Sequence record: PZ000615.1
Origin: a phage
Length of the DNA: 51,960 nucleotides
Reading direction: 5' to 3' (one strand)
Position numbers and translations under genes: made by a program. Of the stretch, positions 1-51,960 are shown in pieces. Below the pieces are notes generated by a model. The model was not told where the DNA came from and did not search any database. It saw nothing but the letters and a program-made list of their open reading frames with translations. Within the stretch, counting starts at the first letter, position 1, and each line of letters opens with the position of its first letter.

Positions 1-355
1 CGTTCGAGTCAAATCTCAGGTCAAATCGGCAATAGCTTGCGCGAAATCCTTTGCACTTATTCCGGACGTAATCGCGATGAATAGCCATGGCACCGGACAC
101 GGAAATCATACCACGCTTGCGCCATTCGTAAAGTGTGGCGTGAGAGATCTTAATGGCCTTGACAAGGGCGGCGGGTGAGCCGTAGTATTCAATCACCTTT
201 TCGAGGCGATGCGCTAATCCGGCCTTTACCTCATCCTTCAGGACGTAATAGCCAGTTGGTTTCTTGCGCTCTTTCTTATCAGCTCCGCGTGAAGTCCCGT
301 TATTACCGTTGAGAGAACGTTTGTCTACCGCGCCGGATTTTGTCAGTTTCGTCAT
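1..355 (-). CDS. Partial CDS (start codon in window, 3' end beyond window edge): putative helix-turn-helix transcriptional regulator
   Basis: Minus-strand open frame from ATG at 355-353 with GAGGA Shine-Dalgarno upstream, no stop before position 1 (hence absent from ORF track); translation contains HTH-like segment ISHATLYEWRKRGMISVSGAMAI; divergent from helicase operon. Confidence 0.4.
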   Translation of the reverse strand, partial: MTKLTKSGAVDKRSLNGNNGTSRGADKKERKKPTGYYVLKDEVKAGLAHRLEKVIEYYGSPAALVKAIKISHATLYEWRKRGMISVSGAMAIHRDYVRNKCKGFRASYCRFDLRFDSN

Positions 356-367
356 GATATTTTCCTC

Positions 368-412
368 AATAGCACTTTTTGTTAAACCAGTTGTCTTGTT
401 GAGTGTTATTAT
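368..412 (+). promoter_or_regulatory. Promoter-like cassette (palindromic element + -10-like hexamer)
   Basis: AATAGCACTTTTTGTTAAA 368-386; TATTAT 407-412, 22 nt after TTGTTA; upstream of helicase. Confidence 0.4.
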
Positions 413-2484: not shown

Positions 2485-2902
2485 TAAAGGCGATTACCTT
2501 GAATATTACGAGCGCGATCCAAGCGACACCAGAAAGGAGGAGGCGCACCAAAACGATAGCGCCTCTTGGGTTAAGTATCACTATCCGGAAATAATTTTCT
2601 GGCACACGGTCAACGAGGGTAAGAAAACAATCACCCAGGCAGACCGAGATCAGAGAGCTGGATTATTGAAGGGGGTGAGCGATAACGTATTCCTGAATGG
2701 AGTTTGTTACAAATTCCCGTTTGGAGCCATTGAGCTTAAGCGCGTCAATAAGAGCGGAAAGGGGGCAGCGTCACCAGTCAGCGATGAACAGAAAGCATAT
2801 CTCAAGCGCGTTCGTTCTGCTGGAGGTTTCGCCGCCGTCGCTTACGGGTTCGAACAGTTCAAGCTGGCTTTCCTTGATATGATAGGGAAACAGCACGAAT
2901 AG
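2426..2902 (+). CDS. VRR-NUC-like (PD-(D/E)xK) nuclease
   Basis: Track ORF; motif region FWHTVNEG...GVSDNVFL...GAIELKRVNKSGKG...EQKAYL resembles VRR-NUC; start uncertain (59-nt overlap with helicase). Confidence 0.5.
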   Translation: MGRVRTLLAAKTLEGKLITDKGDYLEYYERDPSDTRKEEAHQNDSASWVKYHYPEIIFWHTVNEGKKTITQADRDQRAGLLKGVSDNVFLNGVCYKFPFGAIELKRVNKSGKGAASPVSDEQKAYLKRVRSAGGFAAVAYGFEQFKLAFLDMIGKQHE

Positions 2903-2933
2903 CTAAAACAGCCGGAAGGGAATCCGGTATTAT
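2889..2933 (+). promoter_or_regulatory. Promoter-like cassette (variant element)
   Basis: CAGCACGAATAGCTAAA variant; hairpin CCGGAAGGGAATCCGG in spacer; TATTAT 2928-2933; upstream of dam. Confidence 0.35.
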
Positions 2934-3928: not shown

Positions 3929-4170
3929 TGGATATTCGCGAGGGTAGAGCGGCAGTATGGGAGCACGCAAAGGAATGCGGGATTGATGAAGATATAGCAC
4001 GAATTGCTAAACATTTCGACATCAAAGAGATTAATATCTTCACTCCTGGCGACGGCGGCAAGCTTACATATTTAAACGAACGCCCTCGCAAATTTCACAA
4101 GATAGCGGTTGCAGCGAAATCAGAAAAAACGCTTGACCAATACCTTAAAGAGGCAAGAGGCAAGAAATGA
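3928..4170 (+). CDS. Hypothetical protein (contains an internal copy of the promoter element)
   Basis: ATG at 3928 overlapping upstream stop (TAATG); track ORF 3862..4170 has an upstream non-ATG extension. Confidence 0.4.
   Translation: MDIREGRAAVWEHAKECGIDEDIARIAKHFDIKEINIFTPGDGGKLTYLNERPRKFHKIAVAAKSEKTLDQYLKEARGKK
3993..4037 (+). promoter_or_regulatory. Promoter-like cassette located inside a coding region
   Basis: TATAGCACGAATTGCTAAA then TAATAT at 4032-4037 with the same 22-nt spacing; inside ORF 3928..4170. Confidence 0.3.
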
Positions 4171-6207: not shown

Positions 6208-6788
6208 TGATTATCATTTTGAACGCACCAGCCGGAGCCGGAAAAGACACCATTCAGCAAGCAATTGCGGAGCTGCATGAGGTGTCACAGCTCAGCTTTA
6301 AAAAGCCTATGTTCGCTATGGCTAATGCCATGCTTGGCGATCTGGGGTTCATGGAATTCATGGACGCCTACAACAACCGCGAGCGAAAAGAAAAGCCACT
6401 TGAATTGCTTCACGGCTCAAGCCCTCGGCAGTTCATGATCTGGCTGAGTGAGAGCGTTATTAAACCTCACTTTGGCGACAAGCATTTTGGTAATCTGCTT
6501 TATGACGATTACATTATGCACGAGAATGACGGCTACTATGTCGGAGTTGTCAGCGACGGCGGGTTTGAGAGTGAGACGATTGCTCTGATCGATACTGGAG
6601 TTCCGGTTCGTCTTGTTCGACTTCATCGTGACGGCTACTCGTTTGCCGGAGACTCACGCGATTATGTCAGTCTGCCGCTCTACGCTAATAGCCCTACGTA
6701 TGACTACCAAGAGTTTGACGTTCAGTTAACTGAAGGTTTGCCAGTTGTGGCGGCGCTGGATATTCTCTCAATGGTCGGGTTGAAATAG
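6207..6788 (+). CDS. P-loop kinase, deoxynucleoside monophosphate kinase-like
   Basis: N-terminal IIILNAPAGAGKDT (GxxxxGKD/T P-loop as in phage dNMP kinases); TAATG coupling to upstream gene. Confidence 0.55.
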   Translation: MIIILNAPAGAGKDTIQQAIAELHEVSQLSFKKPMFAMANAMLGDLGFMEFMDAYNNRERKEKPLELLHGSSPRQFMIWLSESVIKPHFGDKHFGNLLYDDYIMHENDGYYVGVVSDGGFESETIALIDTGVPVRLVRLHRDGYSFAGDSRDYVSLPLYANSPTYDYQEFDVQLTEGLPVVAALDILSMVGLK

Positions 6789-6828
6789 CACGAATTGCTA
6801 AAACTTGCGCAACGGAATGCGCTATTAT
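6784..6828 (+). promoter_or_regulatory. Promoter-like cassette
   Basis: AATAGCACGAATTGCTAAA 6784-6802 (contains stop TAG of upstream gene); hairpin GCGCA-ACGGAA-TGCGC; TATTAT 6823-6828. Confidence 0.4.
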
Positions 6829-7986: not shown

Positions 7987-8390
7987 AAAAGACAATCATC
8001 GCTTGTTGCGTATCTCTGGCTTTAATCGTATCTGGTTGCTCGGCTACGTCTGCTCTGACTGGTCTAATCGGCAGCAAGCCGGATGTCACAGCACAGGCCG
8101 GAGCCGAAAACACAAAACAGACTCTCGGACTGAACAGCAAGGTTGACCAATCCAGCAAGTCGGACAACACGATTAAGGATTCAGCCGTCGGCTCTGTTGA
8201 TAGCTCCAACGGCAAACGAGTTAACGCCTCAAGCATCACGGCGGATATGATCAAGGCAGACAAGATTGAGATCAGGAATAATGAGGCTTACGTGTGGGAA
8301 ATGGAGGCAGGGATGTTTGTCGTTGGCCTAATGGCGGGCGCTCTCGCAGTTACCATCTACGCGACACGCAGAAAGAACAAAGGAGCCTAA
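7983..8390 (+). CDS. Unimolecular spanin (lipoprotein signal + C-terminal TMD)
   Basis: N-terminal lipobox LIVSGC, C-terminal [24 protein letters not shown] overlap with endolysin; followed by terminator. Confidence 0.65.
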
Positions 8391-11236: not shown

Positions 11237-11281
11237 AATATAACAAAACCCGCCGGAGCGGGTTTATCAAAAAGTGCTATT
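11237..11281 (-). promoter_or_regulatory. Promoter-like cassette (minus orientation) overlapping terminator hairpin
   Basis: Minus strand AATAGCACTTTTTGATAAA, hairpin CCCGCTCCGGCGGG in spacer, TATATT 22 nt after TTGATA; upstream of small membrane ORF. Confidence 0.35.
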
Positions 11282-12789: not shown

Positions 12790-12836
12790 AGCTTAACGCC
12801 TTTCTCGTTATTTGTCTTTAGCAATTTGTGCTATTT
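12790..12836 (-). promoter_or_regulatory. Promoter element copy (minus orientation), weak -10
   Basis: Minus strand AATAGCACAAATTGCTAAA; hexamer at the expected position is TTAAGC (poor -10). Confidence 0.25.
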
Positions 12837-13707: not shown

Positions 13708-13752
13708 ACTATACCAAAGCCAGCCCCAGGAGTTTTAGCAATTCGTGCTATC
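13708..13752 (-). promoter_or_regulatory. Promoter-like cassette (minus orientation)
   Basis: Minus strand GATAGCACGAATTGCTAAA then TATAGT after 22 nt; upstream of secreted-protein gene. Confidence 0.4.
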
Positions 13753-14674: not shown

Positions 14675-14721
14675 GATTATGACCGATTCGAGACTGATTG
14701 GTTTAGCAAAAAGTGCTATTT
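14675..14721 (-). promoter_or_regulatory. Promoter-like cassette (minus orientation), first of leftward operon
   Basis: Minus strand AATAGCACTTTTTGCTAAA; CATAAT-like hexamer ~23 nt downstream; then CATCGAAACAGGAGG-ATG. Confidence 0.4.
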
Positions 14722-14902
14722 CTTGCAGATTGTCATAATGACTATATTGTTGCTGTATTGTTCATGATCGCATAACGCCTTTGCTCATATAGCAATAGTG
14801 ATTGTTGCTGTGATAGCAAATGTGTGCGCTCATTATTGCTTGATATGCATTAAGTTGAGAGGGGTAGAGATGGTGATTCGCTGTTCGCCTGATGACTGTT
14901 GG

Positions 14903-15445
14903 AAATTTCACGGAGGATTTGGGGAGGATTACGGAGGATTTCTCGGACTCAATTAGACGAACCTTTCAGAGCTACAGCTCATCTTTCTCCATCCCTGACT
15001 TGTCTGATATGCTACGGAGGGTTGCGGAGGATTACGGAGGATTTGCAATTCGGCTCTAGCCCTTGGTGCGCGTGGCTTGCGAGAGATTTACGCCGGAAAA
15101 TGTCGATTTCTCTATGGGGGCTGGTATAGATATACATAGAGAATGATGAGAAAGTGATGTGTCCATACGCTCACAGAAAAAATCCGATAACCCAATAATC
15201 AACATAATCCTCCGTAAACTATGAAACGATACCAATATACCAATAGAGAGATATAGTAATAATATATATAAAAACCCTTATATTACATATATATATAGTA
15301 TTATTATATACTATCTATACTGATTAGCTTGGTCATAAAATGAGCTGATTTTACGGAGGATGGTTCCGGCGCAATCCTCCGCGATTTCGATAAGTGTATG
15401 ATTTGCAAGGCTGCATTTACGGAGGGTATTTTCCGCAAAACACGT
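14903..15445. repeat. Iteron/AT-rich non-coding region A (candidate origin or regulatory hub)
   Basis: Tandem CGGAGGATT-like 10-11-bp repeats at 14911-14940 and 15015-15043, inverted/extra copies at 15206-15214, 15351-15362, 15371-15384, 15415-15428; AT-rich core 15225-15330; blocks shared with region B. Confidence 0.6.
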
Positions 15446-15458
15446 AAAAACAACCCAA

Positions 15459-15503
15459 AATAGCACTTTTTGCTAAAACCGCACCCCTGGCTTTTGCTAT
15501 TAT
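15459..15503 (+). promoter_or_regulatory. Promoter-like cassette, first of rightward array
   Basis: AATAGCACTTTTTGCTAAA 15459-15477; TATTAT 15498-15503; then CAACGAAACGAAAGG. Confidence 0.4.
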
Positions 15504-15539: not shown

Positions 15540-15830
15540 ATGAAACTGGTACGCGAATCTATCAAGCTTGGCACTGAGTACAACGGCAAATGGTGGTTCA
15601 CTATCGACGGCAACGACGCCGATGAGCTGGAAGCTGCTCAAGATCGCCTTTCATCAATGGAGACTGGATCTCACACTGTTAAGGCTGACGGCTCACTGAA
15701 AGCCGAGAGATGGAATGACTACTGTGACGGATGCCCTTGTTATGAAGATGGTCACTCTGCTGGATACTGGATTCCTGTCGACATGGTTCCAGCATTCAAG
15801 GCAGCATGGAAGATTGCAAAGAAAGCCTAA
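15540..15830 (+). CDS. Hypothetical protein (first gene of rightward early array)
   Basis: Track ORF; stop TAA abuts promoter element. Confidence 0.5.
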   Translation: MKLVRESIKLGTEYNGKWWFTIDGNDADELEAAQDRLSSMETGSHTVKADGSLKAERWNDYCDGCPCYEDGHSAGYWIPVDMVPAFKAAWKIAKKA

Positions 15831-15873
15831 TAGCACGAATTGCTAAACATGAGCCGGAGCAATCCGGCATAAT
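15829..15873 (+). promoter_or_regulatory. Promoter-like cassette
   Basis: AATAGCACGAATTGCTAAA; hairpin CCGGAGCAATCCGG; CATAAT 15868-15873. Confidence 0.4.
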
Positions 15874-16719: not shown

Positions 16720-17493
16720 ATGATGGCTCGCGTTGCATATCGCGGCGCGGGTGCATTCGTATCTTACGCTCACCCAAAGCAGATCAACATGACCCTTGAG
16801 GTTGCTGACGCTGTATGCATAGACAACGGCGCATTCTCAAAGAAGAATACCGGACGCGAGACGGATTGGAACGGGTTTTACAACGACTTTCTCCCAAGGT
16901 TTATCGACCATCCGAAACTCAGATTCTTTGTTATTCCGGATGACATAAGCGGAGACGACCAGGAGAACGACAGGCTTATCCGTGAGCTACCAGCGCACCT
17001 TAAACACAAAGGCGCTCCGGTATGGCACTTGCACGAGAGCATAGATCGCCTTGTTCACCTGGCTAACGAGTGGGAGTATGTATGTCTTGGCTCATCAGGA
17101 GAATACTACTCAATCCGATCCCCTAAGTGGCGAGCAAGGATGGATGAGGCATTCAACGCTCTGATCTCTCGCGGGTATTCTGCTAAGCTTCACGGCCTGA
17201 GGATGCTGGATGGTCGAGTTCTTGGCAATTATCCACTTGACCAGGCCGACTCAACCAATATCGCCATTAATGCGCCAAAGTGGTTATGCAAGCACGTGCA
17301 GATGACTATAGAGGCTTGCCGGATGCAGACGCATTTCAGTAAGTGGATTGACACAACAGATCCGAAGGTAGCTCTTGATAACCTGATCTCTGCCGGAGGA
17401 ACTAAAGAGCAAATGCTATCTCAGAGGTGCGCAATCCTGAAATCGTGCATTGAGTCAGTCAAACCTCCGCATAAGTCTGACTGGTTAAAATAG
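16720..17493 (+). CDS. TGT-fold protein, putative DpdA-like DNA transglycosylase (tentative)
   Basis: Track ORF 16672..17493; probable ATG 16720 after AGGGTGA; CIDNGAF resembles TGT DSGGFQ catalytic-Asp motif, YVCLGSSGEY resembles TGT YAVGGLAVGE; no zinc CxCxxC..H motif; adjacent to YhhQ-like gene. Confidence 0.4.
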   Translation: MMARVAYRGAGAFVSYAHPKQINMTLEVADAVCIDNGAFSKKNTGRETDWNGFYNDFLPRFIDHPKLRFFVIPDDISGDDQENDRLIRELPAHLKHKGAPVWHLHESIDRLVHLANEWEYVCLGSSGEYYSIRSPKWRARMDEAFNALISRGYSAKLHGLRMLDGRVLGNYPLDQADSTNIAINAPKWLCKHVQMTIEACRMQTHFSKWIDTTDPKVALDNLISAGGTKEQMLSQRCAILKSCIESVKPPHKSDWLK

Positions 17494-17533
17494 CACTTTT
17501 TGCTAAACGCCGCCCGACGTAATCGGGCATAAT
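17489..17533 (+). promoter_or_regulatory. Promoter-like cassette
   Basis: AATAGCACTTTTTGCTAAA; hairpin GCCCGACGTAATCGGGC; CATAAT 17528-17533. Confidence 0.4.
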
Positions 17534-18540: not shown

Positions 18541-18803
18541 AAAAGGTTGACAAGGGTTTATCTTTCTTTGCTGCGCTGGCTATAGTGGCGGCTATCATCG
18601 GCGGAGCTACAGTGTCCGAGGGCTACAGGATTCACAAGCTGATCAACAGTGTCGATGATGACGGGAAAGTTATCTGTGCTCTGACTGGTAACGAGCGAAC
18701 GCGAACCTATCCGGTGCTGGCTGGTAAGGTAACGGTAATGCAAACAACCCAGGAACAAGAGTATTATTGCGCTCCAGGTAAATTATACTGGGTTGCGAAA
18801 TAG
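18537..18803 (+). CDS. Small protein with N-terminal hydrophobic anchor/signal
   Basis: N-terminal LSFFAALAIVAAIIGGA; stop TAG inside promoter element. Confidence 0.45.
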   Translation: MKKVDKGLSFFAALAIVAAIIGGATVSEGYRIHKLINSVDDDGKVICALTGNERTRTYPVLAGKVTVMQTTQEQEYYCAPGKLYWVAK

Positions 18804-18843
18804 CACTTTTTGTTAAACATACCCGCCGTCGTGCGGGTATTAT
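18799..18843 (+). promoter_or_regulatory. Promoter-like cassette
   Basis: AATAGCACTTTTTGTTAAA; hairpin ACCCGCCGTCGTGCGGGT; TATTAT 18838-18843. Confidence 0.4.
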
Positions 18844-18871
18844 TGTTTTAACGAAACGAAAGGAGCAAATC

Positions 18872-19105
18872 ATGAGTCATGTAATCAACCAGAGAGCTAT
18901 CAACGAAACTCACCGCCAGGTATTGTGGGCTATCTTCATCACTCGCGACGGTCAGCGCTATGCGGTGCGCGATCACGGGTTTAAATGCAACACATACGCC
19001 GAGTTAGACGGGCGTTGGGTTCACACCTCAAACCTGTCAAGCTTCTTGGTCTGGAATGGCGAGTTCCAAGGTCACGACGATATCAGCAGTCTGATCGAAG
19101 AATAG
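18872..19105 (+). CDS. Hypothetical protein
   Basis: Track ORF; AAGGAG SD; stop abuts promoter element. Confidence 0.5.
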   Translation: MSHVINQRAINETHRQVLWAIFITRDGQRYAVRDHGFKCNTYAELDGRWVHTSNLSSFLVWNGEFQGHDDISSLIEE

Positions 19106-19145
19106 CACGAATTGCTAAAACTCAATATTGGTGTTGCGCTATAGT
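19101..19145 (+). promoter_or_regulatory. Promoter-like cassette
   Basis: AATAGCACGAATTGCTAAA; TATAGT 19140-19145. Confidence 0.4.
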
Positions 19146-19860: not shown

Positions 19861-20054
19861 CTCTAATCGAAACAACATCCGCATTTGGCGATCCAATTAA
19901 GTGCTACGCCGTTCAGGTTCGTGTTGCTCTGTTCTGGTGGGTGACGGTTGAAACGTGCGGTCATCTCTGCCAGGCTCGCTATTGGATCAACAAGAGCGGC
20001 GCTCCACATCGCAAAGAGCATATCATTAAAATCGTGAATAGCACGAAAAGCTAA
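19842..20054 (+). CDS. Hypothetical protein
   Basis: Track ORF; GGGGAG SD; 3' end reads into promoter element. Confidence 0.4.
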   Translation: MRKYRIALIETTSAFGDPIKCYAVQVRVALFWWVTVETCGHLCQARYWINKSGAPHRKEHIIKIVNSTKS

Positions 20055-20081
20055 AACATCCAGGTGTGGTCTTGCTATAGT
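20037..20081 (+). promoter_or_regulatory. Promoter-like cassette (variant element)
   Basis: AATAGCACGAAAAGCTAAA; TATAGT 20076-20081. Confidence 0.35.
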
Positions 20082-21154: not shown

Positions 21155-21198
21155 ATAGCACGAATTGCTAAAACGGGATGTTCGCTGACTGGTATATT
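21154..21198 (+). promoter_or_regulatory. Promoter-like cassette
   Basis: AATAGCACGAATTGCTAAA; TATATT 21193-21198. Confidence 0.4.
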
Positions 21199-21981: not shown

Positions 21982-22025
21982 ATAGCACTAATTGCTAATC
22001 TTGCGCGAGGTCATTTTGATATAGT
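21981..22025 (+). promoter_or_regulatory. Promoter-like cassette
   Basis: AATAGCACTAATTGCTAAT; hairpin GAGGTCA...TGACCTC spanning TATAGT 22020-22025. Confidence 0.4.
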
Positions 22026-22066: not shown

Positions 22067-22795
22067 ATGAAATTATCACTCAAAGCCATCGCAACCAATC
22101 GCATCAACGGATCTGTAACCGCGTTCAAGGTGTACCCAGTGTTAAATGACATGCTGGCAAGCCTGACGGATTCCGGATACTGGTTCATCAACGATAATGG
22201 TGAGAAGCAGTTCGCACACAAAGGAATCGTTCGCGACGGTTTTAGCGATCCGAAAAAGCAATACAGTTTTGACCTTTGTTTGCAGGTCAAAACGCTGGAG
22301 GAAACTATAAAGAGTCAGATTGACAAGTCTATCCGGTATTCTTTAAAGCCAGGTGGTGATTTATACGGGGCTTTGCGTGGAGGATTCCAAGGCGGCGGAT
22401 ATGTTCGGGATTTTTCATTCAGCAATGCATCTAACGCGGCGGCAAGTGCAGTCAAGGAAATGCAATCTGTTTGCGGAATCATTGGTGACGGCACTATCAA
22501 AGTCAAGATCGGTGACTTGCGCAGCGATGAGAAAAAGGAGCGTGACGCGGCTGTTGCTGAACTTGATAAGCATCTTCCAGCATACCGACGTTCTGATAAA
22601 GGGTTTGGTCTGGTTGAAAGCATTGAGTGGATCGGCAAGCTTAACGCGGCTCACAGTTCAGACTGTCAGAAATATGAGGGTATACTTGAAGATCTTATGG
22701 AGGCGTTCGACATTCGCACCATTGACGGACTCAAGCATTTTGCCTCGAACCTGAAGCGCTCGTCTGAAATTATCGACGCTGTTCGCAAGAAATAG
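22067..22795 (+). CDS. Hypothetical protein (242 aa)
   Basis: Track ORF; GAGGAATGAAC SD; stop TAG inside promoter element. Confidence 0.5.
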   Translation: MKLSLKAIATNRINGSVTAFKVYPVLNDMLASLTDSGYWFINDNGEKQFAHKGIVRDGFSDPKKQYSFDLCLQVKTLEETIKSQIDKSIRYSLKPGGDLYGALRGGFQGGGYVRDFSFSNASNAAASAVKEMQSVCGIIGDGTIKVKIGDLRSDEKKERDAAVAELDKHLPAYRRSDKGFGLVESIEWIGKLNAAHSSDCQKYEGILEDLMEAFDIRTIDGLKHFASNLKRSSEIIDAVRKK

Positions 22796-22835
22796 CACTA
22801 ATTGCTAAAACAATGCCGGAGCAATCCGGCATAAT
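22791..22835 (+). promoter_or_regulatory. Promoter-like cassette
   Basis: AATAGCACTAATTGCTAAA; hairpin CCGGAGCAATCCGG; CATAAT 22830-22835. Confidence 0.4.
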
Positions 22836-24974: not shown

Positions 24975-24983
24975 TGGTATAAT
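24975..24983 (+). promoter_or_regulatory. Extended -10 promoter element (TGgTATAAT) upstream of terminase genes
   Basis: TGGTATAAT immediately after terminator T-tract, ~25 nt upstream of terminase small subunit start; no palindromic element. Confidence 0.35.
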
Positions 24984-25008: not shown

Positions 25009-25539
25009 ATGAAAGACCAACGCAGCGCGAACGAGCGCATTACAGAGCGCGGCAACTTCAAAGAGTTGTACCGCAAAAAGTACGGTGACGTGATCTCCCG
25101 AACCAAGATCTTAACTCCTGAGCAGCTTTTTGATATGGGTGTCGCCTATTTCGAGTGGGCTGAGGCGAACCACATCAAGGCGGCTGAAACTGCATCCTTC
25201 CAGGGTGAGGTTAGCGAGAGCCTGGTTCACAAGGTGCGAGTGTTCACCCTCAACGGGTTTGCCCTGTATGCCGGATGCACGCTCAACACTCTCAACCGAT
25301 ACAGATCCGAACCAGCATACGCTGAGGTGATGGAGTTCATTGACTCGGTCGTGTATGAGCAGAAATTCCAGCTAGCGGCTAACGGCATCGTTAACCCTGG
25401 CTTTATTGGCAAAGATCTTGGCATCGACAAACCAGCAAACATCACCGTCGAAACCATTTCCAGCTCTCAGAGCAGCGCTATCGGAACGGTTGAGCAGCAA
25501 ATGGAACAGGCAGTTTCTAACGTTCTTGACAGCCTGTAA
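25009..25539 (+). CDS. Putative terminase small subunit
   Basis: Position immediately upstream of terminase large subunit, size 176 aa, follows terminator plus extended -10 promoter. Confidence 0.5.
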   Translation: MKDQRSANERITERGNFKELYRKKYGDVISRTKILTPEQLFDMGVAYFEWAEANHIKAAETASFQGEVSESLVHKVRVFTLNGFALYAGCTLNTLNRYRSEPAYAEVMEFIDSVVYEQKFQLAANGIVNPGFIGKDLGIDKPANITVETISSSQSSAIGTVEQQMEQAVSNVLDSL

Positions 25540-30354: not shown

Positions 30355-30882
30355 ATGGCTCTAATTCGTGCATCATATACAGTTCATCGTGGTCAGGCTT
30401 ACGTTGGTCAGATCGCGGATACCTCACTTTACAACATCGACGGCGCTTGCGCTGCTGACGGAGTAGTCCCGATTGGCATCCCTGTTGCAGTTCAAGAAGT
30501 TCAGCCGATTGAAGGTCACAAGGTAGTCAAGCTGGCAACTGACAACTCCCTGCCAATCCTGGGTGTAACAATTATGTCTCACTCAAACTCTCCTGCTGGT
30601 CAGTACGAGGATGGTTTGGCGGTAAACGTAATGACTCATGGCCGAGTGTGGGTTAAGGCGTCAAACGATCTGACTGAAGCTCAAGCGTCATTTGACAAGG
30701 TTGTTTCATTCGACGCTAACGGCGTTGTTACTGACGGCGGCGCGGTTAAGACTGGCTACAAATTCACTGGTGAGATCCTACAGGGTCAGCAGGAGCCAGG
30801 CGGTCAGCCGTTCAAGCTGGTTAAAATTCAGGTGCTGCAATCAGCCGCAATTCCTTCATCTGGCGGCGTGACTGGTGAGTAA
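30355..30882 (+). CDS. Putative head decoration/accessory protein
   Basis: AAGGAG SD; position directly upstream of major capsid gene; Gly/Val-rich. Confidence 0.4.
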   Translation: MALIRASYTVHRGQAYVGQIADTSLYNIDGACAADGVVPIGIPVAVQEVQPIEGHKVVKLATDNSLPILGVTIMSHSNSPAGQYEDGLAVNVMTHGRVWVKASNDLTEAQASFDKVVSFDANGVVTDGGAVKTGYKFTGEILQGQQEPGGQPFKLVKIQVLQSAAIPSSGGVTGE

Positions 30883-30888
30883 TTAATA

Positions 30889-30909
30889 GGGGGCGAAAGC
30901 CCCCTTTCT
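30889..30909 (+). terminator. Terminator/attenuator hairpin
   Basis: GGGGGC-GAAA-GCCCCC then TTTCT. Confidence 0.45.
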
Positions 30910-30926
30910 AATACCACAAATAATTG

Positions 30927-30954
30927 TTGACCGTTTAACAAAAAGTGCTATTAT
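30927..30954 (+). promoter_or_regulatory. Sigma70-like promoter (TTGACC-N16-TATTAT) with inverted palindromic element in spacer; upstream of capsid gene
   Basis: TTGACC 30927-30932, TATTAT 30949-30954; spacer contains TTTAACAAAAAGTGCTATT, the reverse complement of the early element. Confidence 0.45.
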
Positions 30955-31004
30955 GGAGCCGTGTTCAGCCAAAAGGCTCTATCAACCTAAAGAGGATAAT
31001 CATC

Positions 31005-31958
31005 ATGACGATGAAACTTGATTCATTCGAACAGAACGACATTGTAAACGGCCTCCGCAAGATGGGCGTTGAAGCAGATAAATGTGACCAGTTAGGAATT
31101 TGGACTGTTAACCAGCTCAAGCAGACGCTGAAGCGTCAATATGAGGCGATGTATCCTGAAACTTCAGCTCTCAAGCTGTTCCCAGTAACAACCGAGCTGG
31201 CTCCGACAACTACCAACTTTGAATACCTGAAGTTTGACGGCGTGGCAATGGCAAAAATCATCGCTGACTACACCGACGACCTTCCAACCGTTGAAGCGAT
31301 GTCAAGTGTCGAAACTGGTCGAGTTCACCGACTGGGTAACGCGTGGTTAATCTCCATTGATGAGATCAAAACTGGCGCGGCAATGGGTAACAGCCTGTCA
31401 GACCGTAAAGCGACTCTGGCTCGTGAAGCTCATGAAACCCTGGTTAACAAGCTGGTGTTTAAAGGCTCTCGTCCTCACAAAATCGTAAGCGTGTTCGACC
31501 ATCCGAACATTACCCGAATCACCTCCGCGCCTGGCGCTTGGGCTGATCCGGAACTGGCAAGCGAAGAGCTGACCGACCTGATCGAGAAAATCGAAACTGT
31601 TACTAACGGTCTGCACCGTGTAACCGATATCGTTATTCCTCCGTCTCAGCGTCGACTGCTGGCTAAGCGTATGCCGGAAACGACCATGACATATCTGGAC
31701 TGGTTCAAGTCTCAGAACAACGGCATCGAGATCACCTCTATTGCCGAGCTGGAAGATATCGACGGCGCTGGCACTAAGGCGGTTCTCGCTTACGAGAAAT
31801 CTCCGATGAATATGTCCATCGAGATTCCTGAGGCGTTTAACATGCTGCCTATGCAGCCGAAAGACCTGCACTTCAAAGTACCTTGCACCTCCAAAGCCAC
31901 TGGCTTGATCGTGTATCGTCCTCTGACCATGGCAATGCTCATCGGCGTAGGTAAGTAA
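31005..31958 (+). CDS. Major capsid protein (lambda gpE-like)
   Basis: ATG 31005 after AAGAGGA (track ORF 30945..31958 has an upstream extension); size, position, strong promoter upstream and strong terminator downstream. Confidence 0.7.
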   Translation: MTMKLDSFEQNDIVNGLRKMGVEADKCDQLGIWTVNQLKQTLKRQYEAMYPETSALKLFPVTTELAPTTTNFEYLKFDGVAMAKIIADYTDDLPTVEAMSSVETGRVHRLGNAWLISIDEIKTGAAMGNSLSDRKATLAREAHETLVNKLVFKGSRPHKIVSVFDHPNITRITSAPGAWADPELASEELTDLIEKIETVTNGLHRVTDIVIPPSQRRLLAKRMPETTMTYLDWFKSQNNGIEITSIAELEDIDGAGTKAVLAYEKSPMNMSIEIPEAFNMLPMQPKDLHFKVPCTSKATGLIVYRPLTMAMLIGVGK

Positions 31959-33671: not shown

Positions 33672-34075
33672 TGCATTACGAACTATATGAGGCTAGCGCT
33701 GAGTTTGTGGCGTCAATCATCCAGGATAGTGACAACCTTGTTGCCTGGGAGAATATCTCTTTCACTCCACCTGTAGACGGATCGGAATACTACCGATTCA
33801 ACTACAAAGAGGCTGACACGGTAACGGTATCACTTGATCGCAAGTGTGCTTACTTTGTCGGAATGGTTCAGGTCGATGTTGTGTTTGCGCCTGGCTCCGG
33901 CATTAGTGTAGCAAGAAAGTTAGCCGCCGATGTTGCAAAAAGTGCTGTCGATGGTACAATGCTTGCGACAGGTTATATTTTATCTCGTGGTGAGGTTCAC
34001 CCCGTTCAGAAATCAGACACGGGCTGGTTCATTCCGGTTCGGTTCTATGTTAGATGTGAAACAAAAGGAGCATAA
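33671..34075 (+). CDS. Putative tail terminator/completion protein
   Basis: TAATG coupling; position upstream of major tail gene. Confidence 0.4.
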   Translation: MHYELYEASAEFVASIIQDSDNLVAWENISFTPPVDGSEYYRFNYKEADTVTVSLDRKCAYFVGMVQVDVVFAPGSGISVARKLAADVAKSAVDGTMLATGYILSRGEVHPVQKSDTGWFIPVRFYVRCETKGA

Positions 34076-40990: not shown

Positions 40991-41026
40991 GTTTATAATG
41001 GGCGCTCTATTAACGGAGGGTCAGTT

Positions 41027-45985: not shown

Positions 45986-46010
45986 TTTCTTACTCAATGG
46001 TACAATAGCG

Positions 46011-46029
46011 TTTAGCAAAAAGTGCTATT
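46011..46029 (+). promoter_or_regulatory. Inverted copy of palindromic element upstream of tail fibre gene
   Basis: TTTAGCAAAAAGTGCTATT (reverse complement of AATAGCACTTTTTGCTAAA) embedded in larger inverted repeat AATAGCG...GCTATT; between terminator 45964-45985 and tail fibre start. Confidence 0.3.
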
Positions 46030-46049: not shown

Positions 46050-48029
46050 ATGGCAATTTATAGAAAAGGTGAGGCATCACTCGCGGCAGACGGTACTGTT
46101 ACCGGATACGGTACGAACTGGAAAGATCAGCTTGCTCTGGTTCGAATCGGCGCGACCGTCGTATTCCTGACTGGTAACGCAATTAGCGCTATCGGGACGG
46201 TATCGGCTATCGTGTCTGAAACTCAACTTCAAACCATTCAGACTGACGGCGCTGTCGTTGCCCGTGGTAAGTATTTCATCCTACTGCATGACTCGCTGAC
46301 GGTTGACGGCCTGGCGCAAAACGTTGCTGAGACACTCCGTTATTATCAGTCACAAGAAACTGAGATTGCTGACGCGGTTGATTATTTCAGAACTTTCGAC
46401 TGGGAGAAGTTTGAGAAGATCGCGACATCGGTTAAGACCAGCGCGGCGGCTGCTAAGGTTTCAGAAACCAACGCCAAAACATCAGAGACGAACGCCAAGG
46501 CTAGCGAGAATGCGTCACTGCAAAGCAAGAACTCGGCGGCAGGTTCAGCTACGGCAGCAAAAACCAGTGAGACTAACGCAAAGACGTCTGAGACTCGCTC
46601 AAAGACTTCAGAGACTAACTCTGCTGCATCGGCTGTAACGGCAACCAACGAGGCAGACCGAGCCAAGCGTGAAGCTGATCGCGCTGCGGCGGCTAACCCT
46701 GACAACGCGTTACTGAAAGCGAATAACCTGAGTGACGTTCCGGATAAGGCGGCTGCAAGGGCTAACCTTCAAATCGATAGATTTAACCAAGACTCAACAA
46801 CTGAGACAAGGATTCTGTCTGGTGATAAGTCTCAGGCTATGATTGTGTCAACTGGTTCCACGTGGGGAGTGTACAGGTTTGGATCTGGTTGGGTTCCTCT
46901 AGAGATTGCTCAGGGCGGAACCGGAGCAAGCAATGCAGAAGGGGCAAGGAAGAGCTTGCAGTTAAGTGGTGATGACTACGTCAACTTTAATGGATTATCT
47001 TTGAAAAACCAGTTAACGATGAGTAGCAACGGGCAGCCAATTTCACCAACGCTGCTTACAAGGGTGTTTGATGCAAGTGGAAGCAACCTTCTCGGTTCTG
47101 CTGAATTGAGAGCTAACTCAAATGGTAACGTAGAACTCGTTAATAGGATTTCTGGATCGCCAAGGGCGCTGGCGCTATTCCCTGATGGTTCTGTTGCTTT
47201 TTCATCGTTTAATGGCAGATTCATAAGTCAAGGCATGGGTCTTGGGGTCGGTCGAGATATTTCTACTGGTTACGTACTCAATGCAATGAAGGATGTCATC
47301 AACAACGGAGAAACTCAGGCGTTCAGGGTTACTGGGACTGGTGGCATGGTTATTGGTGGAGTTAACTTCCAATATGCACCTTCAATGTCATTCCATTCTG
47401 GAGATGTAGTAGGGGCTTTGTGGGTTGACTACAGGACTGGTAACGCAATGACTGTTTCCGGAACAAGGTCATCTATACTTGGTAACACGACTCCAAATCA
47501 GAACGTGTTATGGGGTACTGCTAACACAACTGTTGACGCTAACGGATTTTTGAAAAGGGCATCACCAATAGTCAAGATTATGAGTAATTCATTTGAGACT
47601 AATGAAGAGTCCGAGGGCGTTTTAGTAACAAGGGTTGGAGTTGGTGAATATCTTGTTTCGGGATGTCTTGGGCTTCATTCAGATCTTGCGTGGGGTGGCG
47701 TAGATGGAGGATTTGAAGTTCCAAAAGACAGGAATGGACAGAACAAGATATGGGTTGACTATGACATGAAAGAGGATGGTTCAATTCTGGTTAAAACCTA
47801 CCACAGGGAGTATAAAGACGTTCCTGAGTTCGCCAAAAACAAGAAGGATGGTTTTGAGGATGGTCAGCCTATTGATATCCCATATGACTCATTCTTAAGC
47901 ATTCGAGTTGAAATGCCGGAGGACAGCGCATACAACAAGAGAATTAGGGAGGCCGAATCAGATGTAAGAAGCAACGCAAACAGGGAATGGTGGAGTAAAA
48001 TACACGAAACTGGTTGCGAGGAGGAATAA
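46050..48029 (+). CDS. Tail fibre protein
   Basis: ATG 46050; N-terminal repeated KTSETNAK / Ala-Ser-Thr-rich collar motif typical of phage tail fibres; divergent C-terminal domain. Confidence 0.7.
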
Positions 48030-50355: not shown

Positions 50356-50399
50356 AGTATACCCGATCTCATTCGTTGCGTTTAGCAAAAAGTGCTAAT
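50356..50399 (-). promoter_or_regulatory. Promoter-like cassette (minus orientation) upstream of exonuclease-erf-ssb operon
   Basis: Minus strand AATTAGCACTTTTTGCTAAA then TATACT ~21 nt downstream, then CAGGAG SD and ATG 50325. Confidence 0.4.
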
Positions 50400-50407
50400 T
50401 TTCACTC

Positions 50408-50860
50408 AACGGAGGATTGCGGAAATTTACGGAGGATTTGAAATCTGGCTCTAAGCCTTGCCACTACTGGATTTGTCGACAATCTACGCCGGAAAATGTC
50501 GATTTTCTCGCTCTATAGACACCAAAAACGCAGAAAACAGGCACAAAAAAAGATCCAATAACCCAATAATCAACATAATCCTCCGTAAATAAATAATATA
50601 CATCACATAGATAATGATAATATCTATATATATTAGACACTTACGTATATCTAAAGGTTGAAAATAGCTCATTATTTGAACGAAATTCGCGGAGGATTGA
50701 TCCGGCGTAAATTCCGCAAATTCTGTAAGTAACTGATTTTGTTGAATGCAATTGCGGAGGATTTTTTCGTGAATCTCCCGTAAATCGGCCTTGTTTAAGT
50801 TTGTTAAATCTTTTTCCGGAGGATTGCGGAGGATTGCGGAGGGTTTGCGGAGGATTTTTC
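50408..50860. repeat. Iteron/AT-rich non-coding region B, paralogous to region A
   Basis: CGGAGGATT copies at 50410-50440, 50575-50588 (inverted), 50688-50700, 50750-50765, four tandem copies 50816-50856; AT-rich core 50580-50660; shares TACGCCGGAAAATGTCGATTT and ATAACCCAATAATCAACATAATCCTCCGTAAA with region A. Confidence 0.6.
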
Positions 50861-51854: not shown

Positions 51855-51900
51855 GGCGCGATCATAATAACCGCGCCCGTGTGGGATTGTTTAGCTTTTA
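51855..51900 (-). promoter_or_regulatory. Promoter-like cassette (minus orientation, variant) upstream of primase
   Basis: Minus strand AATAAGCACTAAAAGCTAAA; hairpin GGGCGCGG...CGCGCCC in spacer; TATTAT; GGAGA SD. Confidence 0.35.
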
Positions 51901-51960
51901 GTGCTTATTTTACTACTCGGAGCATTTCTCGACGGTCACAGCGAGTGGTTAGAGCCTTGC

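Follow-up and report, generated by a model that had tools for sequence, protein, structure and literature searches.

The 51,960-nucleotide phage sequence PZ000615.1, which is called the window throughout, carries 20 strong copies of a short repeat, one of them lying in reverse within the core promoter of the major capsid gene at 30927-30954. By its sequence, this repeat of the T1-like phages is an enterobacterial marbox and a candidate site of the host regulators MarA, SoxS, Rob and RamA. We consider it probable that these regulators read the repeat, activating transcription at the forward boxes and repressing it at the reversed box of the capsid promoter. The window represents a complete, circularly permuted genome, because a gene for a Cro-like regulator of 136 amino acids (51905-51960 joined to 1-355, minus strand) spans both of its ends and closes perfectly when they are joined. 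The Eclunavirus phages Phc and Ec_L1 (T1-like Drexlerviridae) are collinear with it at ~86% identity.

Results

The repeat family has the sequence of a marbox

The copy at the capsid promoter was first noted as the 19-mer TTTAACAAAAAGTGCTATT (30934..30952, plus strand), whose reverse complement recurs exactly at 368 and 18799 and which occurs 10 times in the window at ≤3 mismatches, against 0.02 occurrences by chance. With three central bases left free, the repeat reads TTTArCAAnnnGTGCTATT. A weight matrix trained on other genera only (ESCO41, NBD2, DTL and T1) returned the 20 strong copies at 26-35 bits, with a null maximum of 15 bits, and two further weak copies; the capsid copy scores 30.4 bits, and a box-like site at 33931 (11 bits) was discarded as lying within the range of noise.

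The Grainger laboratory defines the marbox as 5'-GCAnnWWnTGnnAAA-3' (PMC12052159). The window holds 17 exact matches to this definition, every one of them a repeat copy, where the null gives a mean of 0.53 and a maximum of 2. A longer 20-mer consensus, AYnGCACnnWnnRYYAAAYn, which reportedly goes back to Martin et al. in 1999 and agrees with the mar and micF boxes of Escherichia coli MG1655, finds 20 sites at ≤1 mismatch (null 0.88); again all are repeat copies, with the capsid copy and a copy at the tail-fibre gene matching at 20/20. Between the phage box and the marRAB marbox of MG1655 itself, GATTTAGCAAAACGTGGCAT, there are four mismatched positions. In the information profile of the repeat, the ATAGCAC and TAAA blocks are conserved, GCAC and TTG being invariant, and the centre is variable, which matches the marbox layout of two recognition elements, RE1 (GCAC) and RE2 (YAAA), 7 bp apart around a variable A/T-rich centre; the sequence logo described for TLS agrees with this (PMC11447400). 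In the literature, the marbox is described by an A site GCAC and a B site CAAA (PMC9638938) or by the spacing TTT-7X-CGTG (PMC8811837), and MarA, SoxS, Rob and RamA can hardly be told apart by their binding motifs (PMC10268841).

MarA, SoxS and Rob are monomeric AraC-family proteins with two helix-turn-helix motifs, and RamA is found in Enterobacter, Klebsiella and Salmonella. The shape of the repeat agrees with such readers. The first-pass annotation had regarded it as a palindromic site, a description that does not hold: two-fold symmetry is limited to 5+5 bases (TAGCA-N5-TGCTA), position 5 of which varies (G/A/T), and the flanks are asymmetric yet conserved, so that the repeat is no symmetric operator of the Cro/CI type. 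Such conserved asymmetry agrees with a monomer as the reader of a marbox. Exact boxes number 11-20 in each Drexlerviridae genome versus 1 in lambda, and the box stays invariant across genera whose proteins are at 50-65% identity, which fits a conserved reader supplied by the host; in the window, no encoded MarA-like protein was found.

Several other host and phage sites were tried and rejected. The inner palindrome matches the Lrp consensus yAGhAwATTwTdCTr at 12-13/15 positions, but Lrp was dropped since it leaves the invariant flanks, the asymmetry and a fixed distance to the -10 hexamer unexplained. SlyA (TTAGCAAGCTAA), CRP, FNR, Fis, IHF, OxyR, the DnaA box and the T4 MotA box have the wrong spacing or the wrong key bases. 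A sigma54 promoter (GG-N10-GC) does not apply either, the repeat having AG-N8-GC and a sigma70-type -10 at a fixed distance.

The repeat has been seen before. A study of phage TLS lists 18 intergenic 21-nt direct repeats (DR1-DR18, consensus aaATAGCACnnnTTGnTAAAA) ~76 nt upstream of start codons, notes that T1, Rtp and Rogue1 carry them as well, considers that they may be stoperators, enhancer sites or UP elements, and in 2024 named their function an open question for T1-like phages (PMC11447400). The window element is the same, occurs in multiple intergenic copies that agree with the TLS consensus, has the same three centre classes and lies about 50-75 nt upstream of start codons. The TLS paper places its repeats along the direction of transcription, without comment on inverted copies or on a link to marboxes (PMC11447400); about 18 window copies follow this rule of orientation and distance, but the inverted capsid and tail-fibre copies do not. 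In the TLS table, DR7 is on the minus strand (15044..15024) within the plus-strand late region (PMC11447400), and it is very probably the capsid copy of TLS. Within the open-access literature, we found no paper tying marboxes to the T1-like repeats and no transcriptome or map of transcription start sites of any T1-like phage. A scan of IMG/VR for ATAGCACNNNTTGNTAAA gave, among the matches listed, many chance singletons and multiple matches only on contigs of ~46-53 kb, which confirms the T1-like distribution of the repeat and little more.

Forward copies form promoters of the class II type

By their layout, the forward copies are plainly promoters. In 17 of the 19, AATAGCACnnnTTGyTAAA is followed after 20 bp by a (T/C)ATnnT hexamer, which agrees with TATAAT at 5/6 or more positions in 16 of these 17. 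Counted from the 20-bp box, the arrangement of box, N18 and -10 is present at 16/20 boxes of the window and at 98/133 boxes in seven Drexlerviridae genomes, whereas any one position would hold a qualifying hexamer by chance with a probability of 0.016. The repeat lies at -51 to -33 (centre about -41), and nothing like a -35 is present: the -35 match of the box promoters averages 1.47/6 (maximum 3) and the -10 match 4.94/6, and TTGCTA as a displaced -35 was rejected because the spacer would be 22 bp. Six nucleotides past the hexamer stands a conserved leader, A(A/T)CGAAACGAAAGGAG, which as A(A/T)CGAAACGAAAGG starts 6-7 nt after the -10 of the box promoters and lends indirect support to their predicted start; the start codon follows 51-67 nt after the repeat.

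Host promoters of the class II type have the same architecture, with a forward box overlapping the -35 and centred near -41 (PMC12052159; PMC9638938; PMC8811837; PMC10268841), and in Salmonella their match to the -35 averages 1.9 and never exceeds 3, the -10 being canonical (PMC10268841). In MG1655, the micF box ACAGCACTGAATGTCAAAAC lies at -51 to -32 and is followed after 18 bp by TAGAAT. The phage promoters thus resemble micF, lpxC P2, lpxL P1 and rfaY P1 in consensus, in RE1 and RE2 with their 7-bp spacing, in the forward box at -51 to -32, in the absent -35 and the canonical -10, and in a distance from box to -10 of 18 bp, exactly as at micF. They differ in their density of about 18 copies per 52 kb of a virulent genome, in lying far nearer the consensus than the degenerate chromosomal boxes do, and in that the 18-bp interval often carries the terminator hairpin of the upstream gene.

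An explanation by RNA polymerase alone, in which the repeat would be a UP-like enhancer or an L5-type stoperator roadblock, is very improbable. Both ideas were put forward by the TLS authors (PMC11447400), and the position at -51 to -33, the zone bound by the C-terminal domain of the RNA polymerase alpha subunit (alpha-CTD), together with the A/T-rich ends of the repeat, would suit them. The invariant GCAC and TTG are nevertheless unlike UP elements, and the repeat does not qualify as one; a UP element would be functionless within a spacer or downstream of a start site, where the reversed copies lie; a roadblock would not keep a fixed 18 bp to the -10 in 98/133 copies; and the phage is virulent, the annotations showing no repressor or integrase module.

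Box promoters stand ahead of the helicase operon and of two operons on the minus strand, of the small genes between 15.5 and 24.9 kb, and of the recombination genes, the primase and the lysis cassette; they serve everything but the structural module at 25.0-48.0 kb. The name "early element" in the first-pass annotation is therefore too narrow, the lysis cassette being included, although an activation geometry is borne out, the copies lying at about -41 of promoters without a -35. The helicase operon is preceded by a 20/20 class II marbox at 369..388 (plus strand) with its -10, TATTAT, at 407-412. Further class II-type promoters on the plus strand are at 2890..2909 (box, N18, TATTAT), 3994..4013 (N18, TAATAT; within or at the end of a coding region) and 6785..6804, before small open reading frames (ORFs) and the holin-endolysin-spanin cassette. 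On the minus strand, the promoter at 11261..11280 has a terminator-like hairpin in its N18 spacer, the -10 of the box at 12815..12834 is weak or out of place (TAAGCT, at N19 when counted from the 20-bp box and N21 from the 19-mer), and 13732..13751 and 14700..14719 are class II-type promoters, the latter 20/20 and at the left edge of a 740-bp non-coding region. From the right edge of this region (15460..15479) the plus-strand series runs through 15830..15849, 17490..17509 and 18800..18819, all three 20/20 and the last with a 19-mer core that is the exact reverse complement of the capsid copy, then through 19102..19121, 20038..20057, 21155..21174 and 21982..22001 to 22792..22811, the last before the structural module. 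The minus-strand promoter of the exoVIII/Erf/SSB operon is at 50379..50398, with N17 and then TATACT, and a weak marbox-like copy (14.3 bits, N18, TATTAT) lies upstream of the primase gene at 51888..51907 (minus strand).

At 11277-11279, 17491-17493, 18801-18803 and 22793-22795, the upstream ORF ends on the TAG within the box (AATAGCAC), so that coding sequence reaches into the promoter of the next operon. The interval between box and -10 often holds a G+C-rich hairpin with a T-rich run, for example cccgctccggcggg-ttttgt (11243-11260, 15850-15867, 18820-18837, 22812-22829), and these hairpins look like terminators of the upstream gene nested in the next promoter.

The capsid promoter contains a reversed marbox

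The sigma70-like promoter that had been described upstream of the capsid gene, TTGACC-N16-TATTAT, is confirmed at 30927-30954 and is conserved across the family. The -35 hexamer TTGACC (30927..30932, plus strand), of which TTGac is kept in position in relatives, is separated by a 16-nt spacer (30933-30948, g followed by TTTAACAAAAAGTGC) from TATTAT (30949-30954); a TG at 30946-30947 (-15/-14) completes an extended -10, TG-c-TATTAT (30946..30954, plus strand). Transcription is predicted to start at 30960..30962 (plus strand), 6-8 nt past the -10 and probably at about 30961. That this is the best promoter of the window is true in part: a hexamer scan, which ranked sites without regard to intergenic location, gave nothing above 10/12, and the capsid promoter is the sole site at 10/12 with a TG extended -10, but ten sites tie at that score. 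Likewise, the spacer does hold an exactly inverted copy of the element found at 368 and 18799; the 19-mer, however, fills 15 of the 16 spacer positions and supplies in addition the first four bases (TATT) of the -10, so that both the TG and the TATT of the extended -10 come from the repeat itself.

Read as a 20-bp marbox, the copy is ATAGCACTTTTTGTTAAACG (30932..30951, minus strand), reversed with respect to the capsid gene and 20/20 to AYnGCACnnWnnRYYAAAYn. It covers about -29 to -10 (centre about -19.5), with RE1 (GCAC) over the TG of the extended -10 and over -12/-11 and with RE2 (TAAA) adjoining the -35; the copy is 52 nt away from the ATG. A published screen assigns boxes centred between -35 and +25 to a repression class (PMC12052159), and the capsid and tail-fibre boxes both lie over their core promoters in this range. 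An antisense class II promoter is ruled out at either copy, since on the opposite strand neither the window nor its relatives have a conserved -10 at N18 (TATTAG, TATCAG, TAGACA, TAAGCG). A role of the capsid copy at the RNA level was also rejected, because the copy is upstream of its own start site and the leader of the window folds no better than shuffled sequences (z = -0.22), keeping only a short CGTG motif. The T1 capsid leader (15092-15120) opens with a stable hairpin and a U-run, GCCGUGA...UCACGGUUUUUU (z = -2.8), which could be a 5' stabiliser or a leader terminator.

Two host promoters provide the closest precedents. E. coli pbpG is a direct target of MarA and SoxS repression, is also repressed by Rob and has its marbox within the spacer, and rob is repressed by MarA and SoxS, its marbox reportedly lying between the hexamers (Schneiders and Levy in 2006). 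In MG1655, the pbpG spacer contains GCACTTTTTGCT, which is exactly the core of the phage box; the rob core AGCAAAAAATGCTATTAT and the capsid core TTAACAAAAAGTGCTATTAT agree at 17/20 positions, and ...AACAGCAAAAAATGCTATTAT... of the rob core shares 15/15 bases with the core of the ESCO41 capsid promoter. As at pbpG and rob, the capsid box is inside a core promoter, so that the repression geometry proposed in the first-pass annotation has precedents in this very site family; judged by sequence, this late phage promoter resembles the host's own marbox-repressed promoters and is a phage-borne addition to the promoters with a marbox in the core. There are two differences. The best 20-mer match at pbpG is forward with RE1 beside the -35, whereas the capsid box is reversed with RE1 on the extended -10; and repression, reported for pbpG and rob, is a prediction for the phage capsid promoter.

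The promoter is set apart from its upstream gene. An intrinsic terminator, GGGGGC-GAAA-GCCCCC with TTTCT (30889..30909, plus strand), ends the upstream gene (30355-30882), is present before the capsid promoter in most relatives and would shield it from read-through. Just 5' of the -35 stands an A-rich block, CACAAATAATTG (30915..30926, plus strand), whose CAyAAA part is conserved in most of the 13 capsid promoters compared below and may have a UP-like role. Downstream, the ribosome-binding site (RBS) AAGAGG (30990-30995, plus strand) serves the major capsid protein gene (31005..31958, plus strand; ATG at 31005), the product of which shares 99% identity with the annotated major head protein of Enterobacter phage Ec_L1.

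The spacer of the capsid promoter is conserved across genera

We compared 13 distinct capsid-promoter sequences, which came from T1 and from contigs of IMG/VR and whose capsids are as low as 72% in identity. Conservation is limited to CAyAAA, TTGac, TTA.CAA, TGCTAT, a T at -7 and a short leader cgtg, and the rest drifts. Within the spacer, variation is confined to the positions at which other repeat copies vary, with all centre classes present. As this constancy falls on the positions that a marbox requires, the capsid spacer is, from the alignment, under a marbox-type constraint beyond that of a promoter.

These data bear on the idea that the capsid copy is mere promoter DNA, captured for instance by recombination for its GTGCTATT extended -10 and constitutively used by RNA polymerase only. 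The repeat does provide the TG and TATT of the -10, and the two bases after the capsid copies always restore the T at -7 (TATTAT, TATCAT, TATTCT). In the Braunvirinae (DTL 18800-18876; contig L023 about 1100-1200, at 54% capsid identity), an ordinary box-free promoter, TTGATT-N16-TGTATAAT, stands at the same place, which makes the box dispensable there, and the other late promoters, that of TerS with TGgTATAAT and that of J with TATAAT, are box-free as well. This explanation nonetheless appears quite improbable, since the spacer bases on the RE2 side, TTA.CAA, which RNA polymerase does not read, are kept in all 13 promoters when the flanks are free to change; since the tail-fibre copy lies 3' of its -10, where the promoter gains nothing from it, and even so is kept in the window, NBD2, T1 and DTL; and since T1, ESCO41 and NBD2 carry further copies over the 5' ends of late genes. 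The Braunvirinae keep their class II boxes and the tail-fibre box; the lack of a box at their capsid promoter has the look of a natural loss. About 20 records that bear the name "Campylobacter phage" hold the regulator and the capsid region of T1-like phages, with an identity of about 88% to phages of E. coli; the hosts of these records are probably mislabelled, or the records contaminated.

A second reversed box and other late promoters

A second reversed copy, which had gone unmentioned in the earlier description, is located at the tail-fibre gene. There, an extended -10, TGgTACAAT (45998..46006, plus strand), with a terminator 5' of it, is followed by a 20/20 marbox at 46009..46028 (minus strand), about -5 to +16 of the promoter. 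The box starts 2 nt past the -10 (4 nt for the 19-mer) and is 20 nt away from the ATG at 46050, a layout shared with NBD2, T1 and DTL. T1, ESCO41 and NBD2 have extra boxes, absent from the window, right before the RBS or ATG of late genes with no -10 after them: in T1 at 8362-8381, 18833-18851 and 25021-25040 (TerS, the tape-measure chaperone and the J-like tail gene), and in ESCO41 and NBD2 at the J-like tail gene (L003 25496-25515; L004 25745-25764); the box at the J-like gene includes the RBS itself (AATAGCACAAAAAGGTAAAcatcATG). In the window, the promoters of TerS (TGgTATAAT, 24975-24983) and of the J tail gene of 1300 amino acids (TATAAT, 40994-40999) have no box; both are downstream of terminators and driven by the -10 without a -35, which matches the "transcripton" layout described for T1.

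A phage regulator as a less likely reader

A different reader would be a phage DNA-binding protein, chiefly the Cro-like regulator (phrog_2856), which would use the repeat for both jobs, activation from -41 and occlusion of the capsid and tail-fibre promoters, the likeness to marboxes then being convergence or mimicry. Its gene starts 12 nt after the copy at 368, and the box at 369..388 also falls at about +15 to +33 of a divergent TATAAT (413-408, minus strand) facing this gene (ATG at 355). Such a box between the promoter and the RBS of the regulator has the geometry of autoregulation. The regulator is found in 825 phage records, essentially all T1-like, and among the five annotated relatives it is the one gene resembling a transcription factor that all of them share; a confident model (pLDDT 88) gives it an all-alpha Cro fold (Xfaso1/N15 Cro, TM-target 0.75), extended at the N and C termini by conserved segments. 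In TLS, only three promoters are canonical sigma70 promoters, and one of them (P57; PMC11447400) belongs to the regulator gene, so that its product could be made first.

We nevertheless consider this reader unlikely. Conservation along the protein is lowest in helices 2 and 3 of its helix-turn-helix (top-residue frequency 0.52-0.56 versus 0.83 in the N-terminal arm), whereas the DNA element is invariant; Cro-type dimers need two-fold symmetric operators and the repeat is asymmetric; an activator made by the phage leaves the transcription of its first genes unexplained; and so exact a match to a host site family, extending to sequence, spacing, orientation and distance alike, would hardly be expected by coincidence. 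Along the regulator, the basic N-terminal arm and the C-terminal part are much more conserved than the helix-turn-helix.

The regulator is also offered another target by a second repeat family, YYRCGGAGGAT, which forms head-to-tail arrays with a 10-11 bp period (39 matches at ≤2 mismatches versus 10.9 expected) clustered in two large non-coding regions, 14900-15430 and 50400-50860 (for example 14908-14939, 15012-15042 and 50814-50855). The first of these regions also has an extreme AT-rich block at about 15225-15320. The arrays are candidates either for origin iterons with an unwinding element or for the real operators of the Cro-like regulator.

Discussion

Based on these findings, we favour the explanation in which the repeat is a marbox and host MarA, SoxS, Rob or RamA would bind it. 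At the forward boxes, the bound regulator would replace recognition of a -35 by contacting region 4 of sigma70 and the alpha-CTD; the operons driven in this way would be those of replication, recombination, lysis and the small genes. The capsid promoter, in turn, would be a self-sufficient sigma70 promoter, consisting of the A-rich block, TTGACC, a 16-bp spacer and TG-TATTAT behind a terminator; a regulator on its reversed box would cover the sigma contacts at TG and at -12/-11 and hinder RNA polymerase, and by analogy with pbpG and rob such occupancy may well repress the promoter. One pool of host protein could thus turn on the non-structural promoters and at the same time hold down those of the capsid and tail-fibre genes. 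When a phage genome enters the cell, its first genes have only host proteins to read them, so that an activator made by the host fits better than one made by the phage. The earlier idea of a single factor that activates some promoters and represses another therefore fits in outline, except that the factor is probably a host protein and not a phage regulator.

Bifunctional regulators that activate near -40 and repress at the core promoter are well known, such as lambda cI at PRM/PR, phi29 p4 and the C-proteins, and the Mor/C sites of Mu, at -51 to -33, illustrate an activator site that replaces the -35. The likeness to these systems lies in one protein giving opposite outcomes by the position of its site; the difference is that theirs are element-encoded dimers on symmetric sites, whereas the phage box is asymmetric and of the type of a host regulon.

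A broader proposal, which we put forward tentatively and hold to be possible rather than probable, is that the Drexlerviridae run nearly all of their non-structural transcription on MarA, SoxS, Rob and RamA, the reversed boxes delaying or throttling the virion genes until replicated genomes titrate the regulator pool. Relief of the capsid promoter could come later, as replicated genomes with about 21 boxes each titrate the regulators and as MarA and SoxS are degraded. SoxS reaches about 2,500 molecules per cell (PMC9638938), and MarA, SoxS and RamA are degraded by Lon; the titration timer itself is speculative.

Several points weigh against the explanation by host regulators. Laboratory cells that are not under stress contain little MarA and SoxS, and most of their Rob is sequestered in aggregates (PMC10268841); T1-like phages grow well nevertheless, so that their promoters would need little activator or would use free Rob. 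A reversed box in the class II position activates at yadG (PMC10268841), so that orientation alone is no proof of repression. In vitro, pbpG is repressed by SoxS but not by MarA. As far as we know, classical selections for T1 resistance gave only tonA and tonB and never rob, marA or soxS, which could be explained by redundancy among three or four regulators. The Braunvirinae DTL and L023 manage without a capsid box. A constitutive repressor of a late gene requires a mechanism of relief, and the one proposed above is speculative. Finally, the start sites, the binding, the repression and the timing at the phage box promoters are predictions.

To our knowledge, how the genes of T1, a member of the original set of T phages, are timed without a polymerase or sigma factor of its own was never settled. 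The marbox explanation accounts for the conservation across genera of a capsid spacer that would normally be free to drift, and the Braunvirinae without a capsid box provide a natural comparison for the function of that box. It also gives a testable answer to the open question on the 21-base repeats of the T1-like phages (PMC11447400).

If the explanation is true, these phages would be a clear case of a virulent family basing its promoter set on a stress regulon of the host; the phage examples known to us have plain sigma70 promoters or phage-made factors instead. Phage growth in Escherichia, Klebsiella, Enterobacter and Salmonella would also be linked to the regulators of multidrug resistance, which would bear on the combination of phages with antibiotics. 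Under the broader proposal, infection would be tied to the antibiotic, oxidative and bile stress state of the host, and inducers of mar, sox, rob and ram (some antibiotics, salicylate, bile salts) would alter its outcome in a phage family that therapy cocktails use widely.

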